This document shows positions 55,299-63,692 of a DNA stretch of 64,000 nt, one piece after another. This DNA comes from Phyllosticta citribraziliensis (Eukaryota). The position numbers and the translations under genes were made by a program. The stretch covers positions 1,116,001 through 1,180,000 of the forward strand of contig NW_027117348.1 of the NCBI RefSeq assembly GCF_038025025.1. Direction: 5' to 3'. Numbering within the stretch: the first letter of the stretch is position 1; every line of letters starts with the position of its first letter. The notes under the pieces were generated by a model. That model saw nothing but the letters and a program-made list of their open reading frames with translations. It did no database searches and was not told the DNA's origin.

Positions 55299-56256
55299 GT
55301 TGGGAGCTGCCAACGAATGCGGGCAAGCTGCTGGGTTGCGGGCGGGCGAGGGGCGCACGGGTGCGGGTGGCGATGCGGAGAGAGACGAGTGAAGCCGCGA
55401 GGTGGACTGCCGGGCCACAGGTCGACAAGAGGGCGCCGAGGTCGAGAGAGTTGGAGATGGAGAAAAGGGCGACAGCTAGCACGGGAATAGATGAACGTCA
55501 GGTAGAAGCGGCCACATTGACCTGCTCAGGGCGGTGAGGTGTTCGGGCATAGCGCGGGTCGGCGCTTTCGGCAAGGTAGATCCCGAAGGCAGCACATCAA
55601 AACTCTGCGCGGACTCCATCCAACCTCTCTTCTTTACAGTACCGCCGGCAAAAAACACATTACTATCGACACGTCTGACTCTTCTTGTGGACGCTGTTTT
55701 CGCGCCGAGCGAAGACCAATTCACCCATGGCTGGGCGCCCGACTTCGATGAGTCGTCTAGACTTGCACGAGATGTTGGGAATCAGCAGAGGTTACATGCC
55801 ACCTTGTCCTTGAAGGATTGGGGCCGCGGTCGAATTACGAGCGTCAAAACCTCGACTGCTGGGTTGGCCGTCGTTTTGATCGTCGAAATCGCTGGAAAAC
55901 AGGCTCATCGCCTCCGTAACATACAAGCCAAGACATGTCGCTTCAATTTCATTCATTGTTCTGCAAATTCCCTATCTCCATGTGTTTTGAGTGTCCTTTT
56001 CAACCGCCGTAGATCCTCACCGTCTTTTGAGATCTGAGACTTTCCCGCTCAAGATGTAACCCCGTCAAAGCAACCACGCAACTGTCCTGGTACCCGCAAT
56101 TTTCCAAAGCAAAGAACTTTTGTCCCTCTCAAGCTCCTGATTCGAAATCCAATCCACTCAAGCTCATCCACCCTTGGTTTCCTGTGAGAATTCTGTCTGG
56201 CTTCAGCCTCTGCTTTGCCATCTCGCAGCTCTTGGACCAGGAATACCTCGATCAGC

Positions 56257-57891
56257 TTAGGCGACCTCTTCGACCGATTCCTTCGCGTCGGTGTCGCTGA
56301 CGGACTGGCAGACAGGCTTCTCGCTCGTGCAGGTGGACGGGTCGACCTCCATTGCGTCCTTATCACTTCCGCCCTTCTCGCCCTCATCCTTGTTGGCTTG
56401 CTCCTGGTCATGAACCTCCGTGTCGCTGACCTCCAGACGGACACGCTTGCTCTGCTGTTCATCCTCTTGCTCCTCAAGCTGCCTCTTGACGCCGGTGCAA
56501 GTGGTGGGGCCAGCCTCGCTCTGATCCTGGCTCTTTCCACCCTTCTCGTTCTCATCCTTGTTGGCGGCGGCGTTGCCTTCCTCCTGGCCATGGACTTCTG
56601 TGTCGCCGACGGACAGATGCTCACCCTTCTCAACCTCCTGCGCATCCTCTTGCTCAGACTGCTTGACGCTCGTGTGGGTGAGCTCAGCCTCTTCCATGTT
56701 GTTTTCGCGCGTATCATCCTCGTCCTCGGCATTGGTGCTTGGCTCCTTGTCTTGAACTTCGGCGTTGCCAGCGTCGGCGTCGTCGACAGATGGAGAGTCA
56801 CCCTTCTCACTCTCCTGCGCATCTTCCTGCTCAGACTGCTTCTTGACGCTTGTGTCGGTAAGTTCAGCCTTGTTCTGGTCCTGGCTCTTTTCACCTTCGC
56901 CCTCAACCTTGTTGGCGGCGTTGTTGCTTTGCTCCTTGGCTTGAACTTCGGCGTCGACGGCGGACAGGCAGTCACCCTTCTCGCTCTCCTGCTCAGACTG
57001 CGTCTTGACGTTCGCATGGGTGGGTCCAGCCTCGCTCTGGTCCTGGCCCTTTTCACCTTTGCCTCCATCCTCGGTGATCTCTTTCTGCTCCTGGGCAACG
57101 CCTCCACCATTCTTGTCCTCACTCTTTTCCTTCTTGCTGGCAATGCCGTTCTCTCCATCATACTTGTCAAAGTCGCACTCTTCGTCGCTCTCGTCTTCCT
57201 CGATCGGCTTGAGAAGACCAGAGTTCTTGCTGACTCGCAGCCTGTGCTTGGCAAGGAGGTCCGCGGAGAGCACGGGGACGGGCTCGTTGTCCAGAATCTT
57301 CGCTTTGGCATTCTTTGCGTCGCCGGGGGTAATGGCGTGTCCAGAGGAAACTTTGCCCTTGGCTCCGTTGGCCTTCCTTTCCTTGCGCGCCAGCACTTCA
57401 GCGTTGAGATAAGCGACAGCAACGGCATGCTCAACCTCTTCGGCAACGGCCGCCAAGTGAGTGAGAACCGAAGAAGGAAGACTCATCAAGCGATTGGTGA
57501 CCCGGATGCCCCAGAACTCCTCAATTTCGAGGAGACGTCTTTCGGTGACCGAGTCATCAGGACGGAGTCTCCTCAAGGTCATGTCGAACTTGTTCAAGAC
57601 CTTGCGCCAGTGAGCTTTGCTCTGAGACGGGTGAGCTGCCTTGTCGGCCCGAGTCTTTGCGGCGACCCGGCCCACGACCTCACACATGATCGCTTTGTCG
57701 GTCTCGGTGAATTCGATGACAGCCTTGATGGCGTCGGCCCGGGTGTCGGCGGGCAAGCTGTAGATTCTTTCGCCGAGCTGGTCGAGGGCGTCTTTGCCCA
57801 GCTTGGAAAGGCTGGTGGTCTTCAAGGCCTCAATGAAGCTGTTCGCGCCATCGGTCGTGGTGAGGTCGCTGGAGAGGATTTCAGGCTTCAT
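56257..57891 (-). CDS. Lineage-specific acidic repeat protein (array gene 1); C-terminal module cut off by a frameshift
   Basis: Intronless 544-aa ORF. N-terminal domain is homologous to 59000-60289, followed by about 5 acidic repeats and KR..KRVRL. KLIEVFLVQELRD follows the stop in a shifted frame. Confidence 0.75.
   Translation of the reverse strand: MKPEILSSDLTTTDGANSFIEALKTTSLSKLGKDALDQLGERIYSLPADTRADAIKAVIEFTETDKAIMCEVVGRVAAKTRADKAAHPSQSKAHWRKVLNKFDMTLRRLRPDDSVTERRLLEIEEFWGIRVTNRLMSLPSSVLTHLAAVAEEVEHAVAVAYLNAEVLARKERKANGAKGKVSSGHAITPGDAKNAKAKILDNEPVPVLSADLLAKHRLRVSKNSGLLKPIEEDESDEECDFDKYDGENGIASKKEKSEDKNGGGVAQEQKEITEDGGKGEKGQDQSEAGPTHANVKTQSEQESEKGDCLSAVDAEVQAKEQSNNAANKVEGEGEKSQDQNKAELTDTSVKKQSEQEDAQESEKGDSPSVDDADAGNAEVQDKEPSTNAEDEDDTRENNMEEAELTHTSVKQSEQEDAQEVEKGEHLSVGDTEVHGQEEGNAAANKDENEKGGKSQDQSEAGPTTCTGVKRQLEEQEDEQQSKRVRLEVSDTEVHDQEQANKDEGEKGGSDKDAMEVDPSTCTSEKPVCQSVSDTDAKESVEEVA
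56290..57065 (-). repeat. Degenerate intragenic tandem repeats, about 55-60 codons, about 5 units
   Basis: Recurring G.K.QDQSEAGPT / EAELT.TSVK.QSEQE..EKG..LSV.D.EV..E.ANK.E.E. Confidence 0.8.
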
Positions 57892-58160
57892 CTTGCGTGA
57901 TCTGAACGTTGATGATGATTTTGTCGGTTTGTTGTTGGTTCAGAGATGTTGCAGTGAAGTCTGCACTGGTTGGACCGTGTAGTGGGAAGCTGAGGTTCTG
58001 CGCGGCAGTGGTCAGCTTGGTTGGTTGAATGAAGGATGAACAATGACTTACCTCACTTGGGGTGATGGACTGAGAGCAGCCAAGAGACAATGGATGCGAT
58101 GGTCTTTCAAGACGATGACGGTGAGGAGCGGAAGAGAGGACGGAGGGCTTAAAGGTAAGG

Positions 58161-58301
58161 TGAGAGCGGCGTTCAAGAGGCAGTGGATGCGGATGATGGG
58201 CCCTCAAGAAGACGGCGGTGATGGATGGCGGATGAGATGAAGGGCGTGAAGAAGCAATGAGAGCGGTGGTCAAGAGGCAGTGGATGCGGATGATGGACCC
58301 T
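58161..58301. repeat. Direct repeat of about 40 bp, offset 97 bp, upstream of array gene 1
   Basis: tgagagcgg...tcaagaggcagtggatgcggatgatgg at 58161 and 58258. Confidence 0.8.
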
Positions 58302-58999
58302 GAGGTCGAAGTGGCTGTGGTGGAGTTCGGGTGGGAGAGATGGTGTGAGGATAAGTTGAAAGGGAAGAGGGTCAGGCGGGGAGTGGAAAAAGGTTGATGG
58401 GAAGTGGAGTAGGCGAGCCGTCGTGAAGTGAACGGGGTGGTGAGTAAGAGAAGCGCCGATGGCCAAAAGTCGAAGCGTAGAGTTGAGTGGTAGCAGAGGC
58501 AGATGGCGAGGATCGAAGGGAATGGAGCGAAAGAGGAGCACTTGTCCACTGCTTCAGATGGAGCTTTGGAGCTGGCGTTCGCTGCCACTGTTGCGTCTGG
58601 TAAGCAGCGTTCGGTCACCACTTCAGAAGGTGCTGGGGAACTGTGGTTTGCTACCGCAGTTGCGATTTCGGTAAGTCTCTGCAAGTTCTTTTCAAAGTCA
58701 ACATACGGGCTGTATTACCTCTCGTCTCCACACTGCTTCCGCCAACTCACGACCCTCTCACGCAGAATTCCCGCCCCGACTACGCAATCCACTCTTTAGC
58801 CTCAATCCCCTGGCCTCGAAATCCCGCGCGCAGGTGTACAAAAAGACGGCCATCCTTGGACACGGACGTGCTGGTGGACGACTGCTCCTCAAGCGCAACC
58901 CCGTTTCCGAATCGGACGAATGGTCCATGGACCCAGCCCTGTTTCGGTCAACGAATGCTCCCAGTCGCTTCCGAGTGCTTCGACAACATACCAGCCACT

Positions 59000-60289
59000 T
59001 CAGGAAGAAGCTGTGATGATCCATCCCAAGCTGCCCCAGAGAAACTTGACCACGGTCCTGGCGACGGTCTCGTCCCCCAGGTCTTGGACCAACCACGCCT
59101 CCAGGCGAATCCAAAATCCTGGAGTTTCCAAGGCCTCCCTGCCAGTAATCCTCTGGGCTTCCTGGCCTTGGTTTCCGAGCTCATGCGTGTGCTCGGCTTC
59201 ACCCTGGTGCTCGTCGATCCCGCTCTCGTCGACGTTCTCGTCCTCACCCTTGCGTTCGTCGTCGGTCATGTTCTCAGCGAGGACCTGAGCGAGGATCTCG
59301 TCGAGGACCTCGTCGACGTTGAAGTCCTTGTCGATGGACATCTTCTGGTTGACCGCATTCTCGCTGGCCACGTTCTCGTCGACCGTGGTCTCGTTGACCT
59401 CGTTCTCGCTGGCCACGTTCTCGTCGACCGTGGTCTCGTTGACCTCGTTCTCGTTGGCCTCGTTCTTGTCGACCTCGTTCTCGTTCTCGTTCTCGTCCTC
59501 GTCGACCGTGGTCTCGTCGATCACGTTCTCGTTGGCGATCTCGTTCTCGTCGACGTCTTCATCACTCTCGGGTTCAGTCTTCGGCTTCAGCAGTCCAGTG
59601 GTGCTGCTGATCCGCAAGCCGTGCTTCTCAAGCAGACTTGGGTCGAGGACCGGAAGCGGTACCGCATCCTTTGGGCCCAGCATCTTCAAGACGTTGACAA
59701 CTTTCTCTTTGGCCGCCTTGGCATCACTACCAGTGATGTTAGTCCTGTCAGGGCCTCTCAGCGACCTCCTCTCAATGCGGCCAAGAGTCTCGGCATTGAG
59801 ATACGCCACGGCCACGAATTCTTTCGTTTTACTGCTGGACATGGTGGCAATGTGCTGCGATGCCGACTGAGAGAGACCCTTCCCCATGGCACGATACCGG
59901 CTGGCACTCTTTTTGCCCCAATGATTCTCGATCCGGTCCAGATTTTCGACGTGTTTCTCGGGCTGCGAGAGAGTAATTCTCTGCTTTGCGTGACTTATTG
60001 GATAAAAACTGCGCACAATGGCCGGGCCAGCAGCTTTTTGCGCCGTCTCGTCATCTTCCTTCAATTTGCACAGCTGAACGATACGTCGGTCCAGGCCCTC
60101 CGAAGCAACTTTGAGGGAATCGATGAATTTGTTTGCGGCTTGACGTTGGTGCTCAGCTGGCAGAATTGCAATGTCGCGCATGATTTGCTCCTGGGTTGCG
60201 TTGGTCAAGATTTCATCGGTGTTGTAGGCTTTCAGGGACTCGAGGAAGGTTTCGATGCCGGCCGCCTTCGAGGAGCTGGAGGATTCCAT
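59000..60289 (-). CDS. Lineage-specific acidic protein (array gene 2), paralog of gene 1, C-terminal module intact
   Basis: 429-aa ORF with VAVAYLNAE, ITGSDAK and PLPVLDPSLLEKHGLRIS..GLLKP; ENEVNETTVDENVAS repeats; FWIRLEAWLVQDLGD. Confidence 0.78.
   Translation of the reverse strand: MESSSSSKAAGIETFLESLKAYNTDEILTNATQEQIMRDIAILPAEHQRQAANKFIDSLKVASEGLDRRIVQLCKLKEDDETAQKAAGPAIVRSFYPISHAKQRITLSQPEKHVENLDRIENHWGKKSASRYRAMGKGLSQSASQHIATMSSSKTKEFVAVAYLNAETLGRIERRSLRGPDRTNITGSDAKAAKEKVVNVLKMLGPKDAVPLPVLDPSLLEKHGLRISSTTGLLKPKTEPESDEDVDENEIANENVIDETTVDEDENENENEVDKNEANENEVNETTVDENVASENEVNETTVDENVASENAVNQKMSIDKDFNVDEVLDEILAQVLAENMTDDERKGEDENVDESGIDEHQGEAEHTHELGNQGQEAQRITGREALETPGFWIRLEAWLVQDLGDETVARTVVKFLWGSLGWIITASS
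59355..59560 (-). repeat. 45-bp (15-codon) intragenic tandem repeat
   Basis: ENEVNETTVDENVAS twice plus degenerate copies and an (EN)n run. Confidence 0.85.
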
Positions 60290-60686
60290 TGTGGGCTTGC
60301 TTCTGGTGCGGTGTCTTGAGGGGAATTATGGATGCTACTTATACGTCAGTGGCCACTCCAACAGAAACCAGAGCGGAAAACTCACGTCGTGGCTTTGCAA
60401 GCGAGTGGTCTTGCGGGGCGGAGCTGGACACCTGGGGAGAGAAAGCACCGCGCTGGGGGTTGAGCGAGAATGGATGCTACGTGCGCGTCAGTGTGGTCAA
60501 TTCAGGGGGATTTAGAGCAAGAAAACTCACGTCGTGGTCTTGCAGGAGGGTGGTCTTGTTGAGCAGAGGTGGAAAGCTGGGTTGAAGAAGGACTGCGGTG
60601 GGGTTGAGCGAGAAGAAGACCAGATCATGACAGGTCGGCGGGACGACAGGTGGACGGGCAGGAGAGCTAGATCAAACGGCGGGAGA

Positions 60687-60746
60687 CGCCGAGAAGCTGT
60701 TCAACTCCCGCCGAGAAGCTGTTCAACTCCCGCCGAGAAGTTGTTC
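60687..60746. repeat. 22-bp tandem repeat, about 2.7 copies
   Basis: cgccgagaagctgttcaactcc twice, then cgccgagaagttgttc. Confidence 0.9.
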
Positions 60747-61078
60747 GATCCCACACGCCGACCAAAAGGAGTGACAGATGTGCACTCAAAATATGGATAG
60801 TCACTTGAAGAGCATGGAGCGTACATGATGCCACATGCTGAATCGTTACAGCCCAAATGTCTTGAAAATATTGGGCCATTTTTTCAGGGGTAGTTGTTTG
60901 ACATGGTAAGTTCTCCCCTCGCCGCCCGGCAGAACTCGCGCTCATGGTGTCGCACTCCAATCCAGCAGTACCCCAATTTGCAGCGTACCTACTTCCAGTA
61001 AACAAATAGGTGAGTATCGAACATCGAAACCTTTTCAATGCAACCAGACACATCAAACTGAAAAGATTCTGAACGAAT

Positions 61079-61764
61079 TCAATCACCTTGGCAGGCTGTA
61101 TCAATCGAAGTCGACAACCACTTCTTCCTCGCATACCAGGCCTCCCCAAAATCTCCCGCCGCCTCTTTCGCCAACCACTTGTCTCCAAGCTCTTGCGCCA
61201 TATATTTCTCAAGATCGTCTCAAAAGTCCTCCGTCGCCATTTTTTCCACGCCACTAAGCAAACATGCCTGCTTTTTGTTTGGAAGCAGTTATGGAGAAGT
61301 TTCAGTTGTTCCCGTAGGGCTCGAATCGGCTTTGTGGTCGTCCTCATTATTCGATGAGAGGAGTTGCATCTCGCTGCTTTTTGTCGTGTCCTGGCGAATT
61401 CCGGGTGTCGCTTTCCTACCGAAGTCACAAAAGGGTTTCCGCCGTGACTCGGATACGCTGTCCGAAAGCGCTTCCCGGACTGCCAGTATTTCCCTCGTCT
61501 CCTTTTCTTCGTCCTGCTCAGTTTTGGAATGAGGCATCGCCGCTTGTTGTTTTGCGTCGCGTCCTGGAAGACTTCCAGCGGTGTCTCCGCGTCCGAGCTA
61601 ACGGTAGAGCTCAGATCGGCATCCAAAGAAGGACATGGTGCTATCTTTCGCCTCTTTGGAGTATTCGAGCACTCCTTTGCTGCTCGAGCCGACAGTGCAG
61701 CTAGCATCGGTACCCTTTGAGATGCACGGCCGTTTAGTGCTTCTAGCGTTCTCTCTTTTTGCAT
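61079..61764 (-). pseudogene. Decayed array gene 3 carrying the shared C-terminal module (5' end uncertain)
   Basis: The frame of ORF 61289-61537 continues past TAA (61289) as KKQACLLSGVEKMATEDF*DDLEKYMAQELGDKWLAKEAAGDFGEAW, with TGA (61220-61222) at the conserved Trp. A frameshift near 61540 is needed to join ATG 61764. Confidence 0.68.
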
Positions 61765-62048
61765 TTCCTTTGAGTCAAACCCACAGATTTATTGACTACA
61801 TTCCCGAGACATAACGAGCACAACGCTAACCAGCCGGACATCTACAATTTCTTCGCCTCTCCTACTCAGCTCTCTCCATTCTGTTCAATCTCATTGCTCT
61901 TTTTAGTGAAGCGTTGCGCTACAACGCGCTGTACTAAGTCGCCTCCAAACGCCAAACAAGACGCCGCCCAACAGAAGGAGATCGTCCATCAGTGCCACAA
62001 TTTCACCATATTCCAAACTTTCCAACCCACAGACTTGCTGCATGGTCC

Positions 62049-63692
62049 TCACGCGGCGCCAGCATTGTTCTTCTTCTCTTGCCGCCAACCACCGAGACGG
62101 CCAATTGCCTCCTTTGCCAATTCGTCGTCTCCCAGCTCTTGCGTCAGATGAGCCTCCAGGTCAGCCCAAAAAGCGTCACTGCCTAGCTTCTCTTGGCCGG
62201 AGAGACGCGGTTGTTTTGCGCTTGGAGCAACATCTTCAGAATCGCTCGACTCCCTCTTAATTCCGCCGGAGAAGGACAGGTTGGAAGCCTGTTGGTCACT
62301 CGACCTCGTGTTGTCGTCTTGGGCTTTGAGCTTGCCCTTGCCTTTGTTACCGACTTGCTCATTTTCAGGCCCGTTGTCTCTATTCCCGCCAGTTGAGATG
62401 CCGGCACTGGCGTTGTTTTGATAGTTTTCGGTTCCGTTTTCGACCCCCTTTGCGGCATCGTCACGAGCTCGCCGTAGGTGCTTTTCAACTTCCTCTTTTC
62501 CGTTGTATTCGTCGTCCTCGGTGAACAGCCCTGGGTATAGCGCGCGCAATTTTTCCAGGCGTCGAGCTTTGCCCGTTCCCGTCTCCTGGCCTCCGCGCTC
62601 TCGCTTATTTCCTCCTTGGTTGGAGTGGGGCCGATCGCTTTGCTGGGGCGCAAATTCACTGTCGTCGGAGTCTCCGTAGACGCCCTCGGAGTCATCCCCA
62701 GAAAATTCGGGGGTATTTGGGAAGAGTTCTTCGCCATCCTCAGGGGTATTAAGGGAGAAATCTTCTCCTTCATCAGGGGAACTGGGGGGAAAGCCTTTTC
62801 CATCATTCCCGGTCTCGTAATCTCTCTCTTCCTCTGCCAAAATCTCCGGTAGCTCATCCCATGGCACATCCCTTTCGAAAACCACGATCGGATCTTCGCG
62901 CTTGCGCAAGTCTTCCCTGAATGGAGACCAGAGAACCCGATGCCCTTTATCCTCCAGCAATTCTTGAGTCTCATGATTGACCAAACGCTCGCGTGCGCGG
63001 ACCTCTGCTTTTTCCCACAATTTCCGAGCTGCTCGATAGTGTACGGTTCTGATCTTGTGGAGTCGAATCCAGTAAATGAGGTTCAACTCATCATCCTTGA
63101 TCAAATGCTTGTATGCCAAGAGTGAACGCTGTACTGACCACGGCACTGCGCGCATCTGTCTCCCCCAGGCTCGAAGAAAGAAACCTCTGGCGAGCACTAT
63201 GTTGTCTCGTGACTCGACACATTCGATCCATCCGGCTTCTCGGATCGCCGATGGTTCGCATCCAGCCCAGAGACTTTTGCACTTCTGTCGCGTTTGCATC
63301 CAGATTGGACTAAGTGCTTCGTCGATGGCATCCTGGATCTTTTGCCGAAAGTAACGGGGAACATTCCAGAACTTCAACTCGTTGGGAAATCCTGAGGGTA
63401 GTTGCGACCACGCCTCTATCTCCTGGCGGAGCTGCAATCGTCTATGAATAAGGTGTGAAAAGCCATCAGAATCATCTTCGAAGACTTGTTGAGGAGGCGT
63501 GTCAGATGCTGCAACAAGTTCGCGAAAGAAACGCCGCGTACTCCAATTCCTAACCTCCTTCAATTCGAGCAGTAAGTCTCGTAGTCGTTCTTTGAGAATT
63601 TCTCCGGAGTCCCCGTAGTTGTCCACTTGGCTAAACGGAGGACGGTCTAATACCCGCGACTCAGAAGCCCGTCGTTTGCTGCGCAGAGGCAT
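62049..63692 (-). CDS. Lineage-specific protein (array gene 4): Trp/Arg-rich N-terminal domain, acidic linker, NLS-like motif, shared C-terminal module
   Basis: Intronless 547-aa ORF ending IKRESSDSEDVAPSAKQPRLSGQEKLGSDAFWADLEAHLTQELGDDELAKEAIGRLGGW. Confidence 0.75.
   Translation of the reverse strand: MPLRSKRRASESRVLDRPPFSQVDNYGDSGEILKERLRDLLLELKEVRNWSTRRFFRELVAASDTPPQQVFEDDSDGFSHLIHRRLQLRQEIEAWSQLPSGFPNELKFWNVPRYFRQKIQDAIDEALSPIWMQTRQKCKSLWAGCEPSAIREAGWIECVESRDNIVLARGFFLRAWGRQMRAVPWSVQRSLLAYKHLIKDDELNLIYWIRLHKIRTVHYRAARKLWEKAEVRARERLVNHETQELLEDKGHRVLWSPFREDLRKREDPIVVFERDVPWDELPEILAEEERDYETGNDGKGFPPSSPDEGEDFSLNTPEDGEELFPNTPEFSGDDSEGVYGDSDDSEFAPQQSDRPHSNQGGNKRERGGQETGTGKARRLEKLRALYPGLFTEDDEYNGKEEVEKHLRRARDDAAKGVENGTENYQNNASAGISTGGNRDNGPENEQVGNKGKGKLKAQDDNTRSSDQQASNLSFSGGIKRESSDSEDVAPSAKQPRLSGQEKLGSDAFWADLEAHLTQELGDDELAKEAIGRLGGWRQEKKNNAGAA

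Follow-up and report, generated by a model that had tools for sequence, protein, structure and literature searches.

The 64,000-nt window analysed here (contig C11:1116001-1180000 of the 31.35-Mb, 22-contig genome of Phyllosticta citribraziliensis) contains four co-oriented minus-strand loci, genes 1 to 4, lying where an initial annotation made from the DNA letters had placed them. Judged by its sequence, the locus is a tandem cluster of Phyllosticta that arose through domain shuffling, and in it one C-terminal module ends two proteins with unrelated heads, those of gene 2 and gene 4. The head of gene 2 carries a basic N-terminal domain of ~120 residues also found in gene 1, which we call domain X. 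The module had been described as unrecognised; it belongs to a known Pfam family, Get5_C (PF17183), an outcome that the initial annotation had itself listed as refuting. Domain X recurs in the same genome within two proteins of silencing families, which are active in H3K9 and DNA methylation. As our best explanation, put forward tentatively, the cluster may encode lineage-specific nuclear proteins that dimerise via Get5_C and modulate silencing via domain X.

Against the Pfam gathering cut-off of 22.9 bits for Get5_C, a first scan gave 23.4 bits for gene 4 and 17.8 bits for gene 2. In a genome-wide search all four candidates matched the family, namely a gene on contig C9 (67.6 bits), gene 3 (29.1), gene 4 (26.4) and gene 2 (21.2), so that the modules of genes 4 and 3 stand above the cut-off; no Get5_C match above it was obtained in any of 14 control genomes. 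The C9 gene is the true Get5 of this fungus (Get5_N 72.8 bits, Get5_C 64.9 bits). None of 1000 shuffles equalled the similarity of the modules of genes 2, 3 and 4 to its C-terminus, and the same holds for each pair among the three, bearing out the initial claim of shared segments for these genes. A tblastn search with the host Get5 found the block at E 5e-7 to 1e-4, the matching part being confined to exon-2 residues 154-202, that is, the ~50 last residues. Identity to the host Get5_C is 34-41% with the hydrophobic pattern kept, and ten alignment columns are invariant across the host Get5 and four intact modules. A profile built from the cluster modules alone had as its best natural match in the PDB the entry 2lo0, Get5-C of A. 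fumigatus, although this match is weak (E 0.0058) and a designed repeat protein scored almost as well. Taken together, the module almost certainly originated as a copy of the 3' end of the Get5/Mdy2 gene.

The cluster genes themselves are not Get5, as they have neither the Get4-binding N-terminus nor the ubiquitin-like domain; the Pfam scan of genes 1, 2 and 4 returned no Get5_N or ubiquitin match. They share with the Get5/Mdy2 dimerisation domain its sequence signature, its C-terminal position and scores at or near the family cut-off, but differ in carrying it on two unrelated lineage-specific heads with acidic linkers and in that it occurs as several tandem copies, of which two are dead. Get5_C was the sole match above cut-off in Pfam scans of the cluster proteins, which revealed no HET, NLR, gasdermin or other known domain. 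Passages of a preprint on yeast Get5 describe a C-terminal homodimerisation domain (bioRxiv 10.1101/154351), and by analogy the cluster copies probably dimerise. The helical oligomerisation tag on varied heads proposed initially is thus supported as to its nature, although the number of its intact carriers falls from four to two.

These two are genes 2 and 4. We reject gene 3 as a third N-terminal type: it matches only residues 460-541 of gene 4 and contains two in-frame stops (TAA 61289-61291 and TGA 61220-61222), and so represents the 3' part of gene 4 copied and then broken. The gene 1 protein has no module, since the alignment proposed for it runs through the stop codon into another frame. 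Its in-frame end shows no similarity to five real modules (99-777 of 1000 shuffles were as good), and the other frame is weakly similar to them (14-32 of 1000). The DNA just past the stop codon aligns with the gene 2 module and 3' untranslated region (UTR) above shuffles (0/200; in a narrower test 2/500 shuffles and 0/500 real windows), and for this reason we regard that segment as a relic. Both this relic and gene 3 are dead copies. In P0007 and P0009, two relatives of gene 1, the protein stops at the corresponding point.

The N-terminal domain common to genes 1 and 2 was confirmed at 31% identity over 237 amino acids (aa) (E 1e-18). AlphaFold2 folds the domain X core of gene 2 confidently (pLDDT 93.8, pTM 0.87), and in 16 of 17 alignment rows the core has a net basic composition. 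There is no Pfam match above cut-off and Foldseek returned nothing at E <= 0.001. The best structural match, the AAA+ lid of CbbX (Z 5.5, root-mean-square deviation 3.3, 77 residues aligned), is tied with designed helical proteins; a missing fold match does not show a new fold. A likeness to the histone fold, also considered, was not among the fold-search rows, and a sequence match to intimin (E 0.009) was taken as chance. When a three-row profile was run against 1.84 billion representatives, 11 proteins were found at E <= 0.001. Named members occur in 10 of their 11 clusters and come without exception from Phyllosticta, the remaining cluster being nameless, so that among these representatives no named protein from another genus was found to have domain X.

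Within the genome, the heads of genes 1 and 2 first led to a weak match on contig C4 (E 0.005), which lies in a protein resembling Raf1. A profile of genes 1 and 2 alone scored this protein at 26.6 bits, versus 5.6 bits for the best of 500 shuffles, and aligned by hhalign to a second protein, with an SRA domain, at a probability of 66% (E 5.7e-5). A larger profile located domain X in the SRA protein and in an open reading frame (ORF) on contig C3. With the three host rows removed, it gave 56.1 bits for the Raf1-like protein, 40.6 bits for the SRA protein and 22.5 bits for the C3 ORF, none of which was matched in 500 local shuffles. For the Raf1-like protein there is some circularity in this figure, as it had helped to gather the rows and build the alignment, and the two-gene profile tests avoid it. 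On these sequence comparisons domain X is almost certainly homologous across genes 1 and 2 and the host proteins. Three further matches in the genome (C4:618433, C3:232201 and C4:128141; E 0.04-0.09) were not accepted as domain X; of these, the profile scored C4:128141 only.

The C4 protein is a 1746-aa uninterrupted frame (L017:2299-7539, minus strand) with domain X and a WD40 region in one open frame. Its best relative in the PDB, by a one-way search, is Rik1-associated factor 1 of Schizosaccharomyces pombe (4o9d; E 3.5e-25, 91 bits over aa 817-1249), the next match scoring 37.6. Parts of three papers give DCAF26/DIM-9 (NCU01656) of the DCDC complex as the Neurospora homologue of Raf1 and as required for H3K9me3-directed DNA methylation (PMC2944796, PMC2973830, PMC11763709); the name DIM-7 for the WD40 protein was dropped accordingly. 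The C4 protein thus resembles Raf1/Dos1/Clr8 and DIM-9/DCAF26 of the H3K9-methyltransferase complexes CLRC and DCDC in its Raf1-like WD40 propeller, and domain X is what it has in common with genes 1 and 2. The cluster genes, lacking WD40, do not count as DCAFs. The C4 protein also shows a weak Myb-like match at aa 453-495, a part which the public model P0008 cuts out.

The second host, on contig C16, has a full SRA domain (SAD_SRA 87.5 bits against a cut-off of 30.7), as do fungal SRA/YDG proteins (PF02182; methyl-cytosine readers of the UHRF1/SUVH type), with domain X in the same open frame. A metagenome scan listed 25 outside SRA loci, of unnamed organisms and including several near-duplicates and fragments, which are ~35-47% identical to the C16 protein over its C-terminal ~350 aa. 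Domain X occupies residues 574-695, just upstream of the part that is alike in the outside loci; among those listed, similarity never starts before residue 696, and domain X was found in 0/25, 19 of them with at least 1 kb of upstream sequence. In this comparison the C16 protein alone carries domain X, as would be expected had the domain been inserted in the lineage of Phyllosticta or in close ancestors of it; the cluster genes, for their part, lack SRA. A reduced UHRF1 homologue is described from Cryptococcus in a paper whose relevant passages leave open such adaptors in other fungi (PMC13297926). The third host, a 185-aa orphan frame on C3 (L028:5152-5709, minus strand, equal to C3:1195152-1195709), has little beyond the domain X core, and its copy is closest to that of the SRA protein (E 5e-8).

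The acidic linkers (23-37% D+E) and the nuclear localisation signal (NLS)-like motifs of genes 1 and 4 noted initially were both recovered, the latter as bipartite pattern matches; by the same pattern there is none in gene 2 or in its relative P0018. From these motifs the cluster products are likely to be nuclear.

In P. citrichinensis the counterparts of genes 4, 2 and 1 bear consecutive locus tags (256022, 256023 and 256024), the first two carrying the module, and comparisons between species were made with P0005 (gene 4), P0018 (gene 2) and P0007 (gene 1). Gene 1 is 88, 88 and 82% identical to P0007 in its parts, and gene 2 is 81, 81, 91 and 67% identical to P0018 over its four. The heads of these two genes are thus 81-88% identical between species, as opposed to 30% (49/165) for the head of gene 4; in the remainder of gene 4 identity is 41% in the linker, 82% (18/22) in the NLS-like motif and 87% (34/39) in the module. 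The rapid turnover that had been proposed for the array therefore applies to the gene 4 head and not to those of genes 1 and 2. That head is unrelated to domain X (hhalign probability 0.3%) and single-copy in the genome. The gene 1/gene 2 pair is apparently present also in P. citriasiana and P. capitalensis, its adjacency being deduced from consecutive accessions, and P. capitalensis belongs to a different species complex according to part of PMC12559956. Get5_C was found in none of 11 scanned relative proteins, among which the P. citriasiana gene-2-like model ends right after the head and may be truncated; P0005 reaches 22.8 bits, just under the cut-off. The gene-2-like protein of P. capitalensis has no tag and ends in a short basic cluster. 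Two other P. capitalensis models bear domain X: P0015, with an NLS-like motif and a C-terminal region weakly matching C4:128141, and P0027, a possibly fused model with an upstream cysteine cluster that we presume to be Zn2Cys6-like.

Homologue searches elsewhere returned little. A word-index search confirmed 0/7999 candidates for gene 2 and 2/8000 for gene 4, and a search with the module profile, for longer proteins, found the same two (2/8000); as it did not retrieve ordinary Get5, it is weak evidence. The ESM Atlas had no match at 0.9 or above for the gene 1 head and no usable one for the gene 4 head, and in a metagenome scan for gene 1 relatives none of 598 pattern matches was confirmed.

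Table 1. Features of the cluster, in positions of the window.
Feature	Position	Strand	Basis or remark
Gene 1, 544 aa: helical N-terminus, domain X, repetitive acidic linker, NLS-like motif; no module	56257..57891	-	Uninterrupted frame
Gene 1 domain X	57199-57600	-	
Gene 1 bipartite NLS-like motif	56437-56487	-	Pattern match
Gene 1 candidate 5'-leader intron	57998..58051	-	Splice-signal pattern only
Out-of-frame module relic just past gene 1 stop codon	56199..56258	-	DNA aligns to gene 2 module and 3' UTR
Gene 2, 429 aa: helical N-terminus, domain X, acidic linker, diverged Get5_C	59000..60289	-	Uninterrupted frame
Gene 2 domain X core, aa 105-238	59576..59977	-	Homologous counterparts in the Raf1/DIM-9-like and SRA proteins
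Gene 2 Get5_C module	59015..59152	-	Below cut-off; 0/1000 shuffles against host Get5; present in P0018
Gene 2 candidate 5'-leader introns, 60477-60530 and 60335-60385	60335..60530	-	Splice pattern; in duplicated ~143-bp unit (self-BLAST)
Gene 3, pseudogene-like 3' copy of gene 4	61079..61393	-	Module at 61130-61261
Gene 4, 547 aa: N-terminal domain without family, acidic linker, bipartite NLS-like motif, Get5_C	62049..63692	-	Uninterrupted frame
Gene 4 head, ~aa 25-250: no family, fast-diverging	62943..63620	-	49/165 identical to P0005
Gene 4 bipartite NLS-like motif	62205..62258	-	Pattern match; 18/22 residues identical in P0005
Gene 4 Get5_C module	62079..62207	-	PF17183, 23.4 and 26.4 bits; 34/39 identical in P0005

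Two sequencing runs, X1 and X3, were presumed to be RNA, and both splice two introns of a neighbouring gene. One X1 contig spans 61782-64000 without gap, difference or joint. The public P. citribraziliensis model P0004 equals gene 4 minus 41 residues; this 41-residue intron was rejected, as the contig crosses it without a joint. The contig supports the view that gene 4 is transcribed and that the annotated intron does not exist, such contigs giving neither strand nor level. Other X1 pieces lie over portions of gene 2 and over a short stretch of gene 1; where contigs covered genes 1 and 3 thinly or not at all, this was given no weight as evidence. The coding regions do look intronless, as first described, but a strict splice pattern picks out three candidate introns in 5' leaders, one for gene 1 and two for gene 2 (Table 1); those of gene 2 are unspliced in the sole contig covering them, from a presumed-RNA run. 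Homology between the two leaders was not above control.

Further observations concern individual genes. The acidic linker of gene 1 consists of degenerate internal repeats (67-71% DNA identity, 56288-57071), and its leader contains a ~140-bp duplication (58071-58301). Run X5, from an organism denoted B, yielded two gene-1-like contigs over 56987-58337, with 28 differences in ~1150 bases and 186 in ~1350, which represent either two paralogues or a mixed sample. In the acidic linker of gene 4, a 12-residue motif (62523-62558, minus strand) is nearly unchanged in P0005 while its flanks differ, and it is possibly a short interaction motif. The block has ordinary G+C content and no signature of repeat-induced point mutation (RIP), and a RIP or transposon island was rejected on these grounds. 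The name SEC23 for its downstream neighbour comes from the initial annotation. At 27 kb upstream of gene 4 an 842-aa frame (L016, C11:1206388-1208916, minus strand) comprises ~26-residue tandem repeats and a Q/E/K-rich stretch.

How the cluster might act can be outlined as follows. Get5_C would have been kept as a small dimerisation tag. Gene 2, having no NLS-like motif, would pair with the NLS-bearing gene 4 product for nuclear entry, and gene 1 would use its own NLS, the tag having been lost; the untagged P. capitalensis gene-2-like protein with its basic cluster fits such piggy-back import. We favour domain X as a docking surface because both multi-domain hosts in the genome belong to silencing families. 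It could be a basic chromatin- or partner-docking domain serving as a lineage-specific targeting surface of these two proteins. The products of genes 1 and 2, in which domain X is free of such hosts and followed by a long acidic tail, may then occupy the same sites or partners, as competitors or adaptors, and would thereby tune the placement of H3K9 and DNA methylation. A role in silencing control is accordingly plausible, and we hold it tentatively. A more far-reaching version, that a new docking domain on both a DIM-9/Raf1 adaptor and an SRA reader constitutes a lineage-specific targeting layer, with the clustered free copies as decoys or adaptors assembled and imported via the Get5-derived dimer tag and the fast-changing gene 4 head setting specificity, we consider unlikely.

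Several points weigh against the silencing reading. The function and binding of the cluster proteins are surmised, and the role of the C16 protein as a methyl-DNA reader is borrowed from UHRF1; in the mainly open-access literature searched, we found no role for ascomycete SRA-only proteins. The two silencing-family hosts form a two-case pattern seen after the fact, and the third host is an orphan. The domain X tree has long branches, with 4 of 13 forks starred, and leaves the direction of transfer and the origin undecided. Gene 4 has no domain X, so that the cluster need not be one system, and the correlation between NLS and module involves very few genes and a simple pattern. The gene 2 module is below the family cut-off in both searches and is the least conserved part of that protein (67% identity to P0018), and the gene-2-like models of P. 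capitalensis and P. citriasiana without Get5_C imply that domain X works untagged.

Alternatively, the locus may reflect ordinary birth and death of orphan genes, with domain X and Get5_C shuffled locally, the tag serving self-dimerisation only and no common system or role in silencing. In favour of this are the death of two of the module's four copies, the lack of the module in gene models from other species, a gene 4 head unrelated to domain X and the orphan domain-X ORF on C3. Such an account, which we regard as rather unlikely while giving it substantial weight, has to accommodate the selective conservation of the NLS and module of gene 4, the apparent retention of the gene 1/gene 2 pair across two species complexes and the membership of both multi-domain hosts in silencing families.

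The initial annotation had also raised genetic conflict, which is possible and for which we found no direct evidence; the gene 1/gene 2 pair is apparently in tandem in the second species complex too. As a conflict locus (allorecognition, drive or an anti-silencing arms race), the cluster would use a constant tag and NLS to carry a fast-replaced gene 4 head, the domain-X proteins being partner or antidote. Like fungal het and spore-killer loci, it consists of tandem lineage-restricted genes with one very divergent region, the gene 4 head differing far more between species than the neighbouring heads. In run X5 the tail of gene 4 was aligned with loose ends and 62484-63635 was uncovered at 85% likeness, whereas the gene 1 and gene 3 regions were covered. 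Unlike those loci, the cluster has no HET, NLR or gasdermin domain, Get5_C being its sole Pfam family, and the two available P. citrichinensis models look nearly the same, with no within-species allele classes in this tiny sample. With the block also free of RIP signature and low G+C content, and the gene 4 head single-copy, we judge this explanation improbable. Less probable still, and in our view very unlikely, is that the modules form pairs with the true Get5 and that the cluster proteins are thereby connected to the Get4/Get5 pathway of tail-anchored proteins and quality control, or disturb it. Their identity to the host Get5_C and preserved hydrophobic pattern would permit it, and passages of the yeast preprint report a stress-linked nuclear role for Get5 (bioRxiv 10.1101/154351). 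However, neither the Get4-binding nor the ubiquitin-like part was copied, the gene 3 and gene 4 modules are closer to each other than to Get5, and what the heads suggest is chromatin, not the targeting of membranes.

By title or the start of the abstract, no paper on this locus was found in texts searched without their supplements, and Phyllosticta orthogroup tables could list its genes. Nor did these searches find a paper on Get5_C reuse outside the GET pathway, on Get5 duplication, on Phyllosticta together with Get5, or on SRA/YDG in Ascomycota. As far as the searches reach, the reuse of a known dimer domain in orphan genes, together with an unclassified domain common to two silencing-family proteins, is new.

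A confidently folded domain that occurs in two silencing-family proteins of one lineage, its gain having been compared for the SRA side, and also as free proteins offers a handle on how the fungal H3K9 and DNA methylation machinery selects its targets, and the cluster provides a clear case of a Get5 dimerisation domain reused outside the GET pathway. If the link to silencing fails, a modest but real instance of domain shuffling in orphan genes remains; if the targeting-layer reading were true, the cluster would represent a modular regulator, encoded by the host and of a kind not yet described, of where fungal heterochromatin is targeted.

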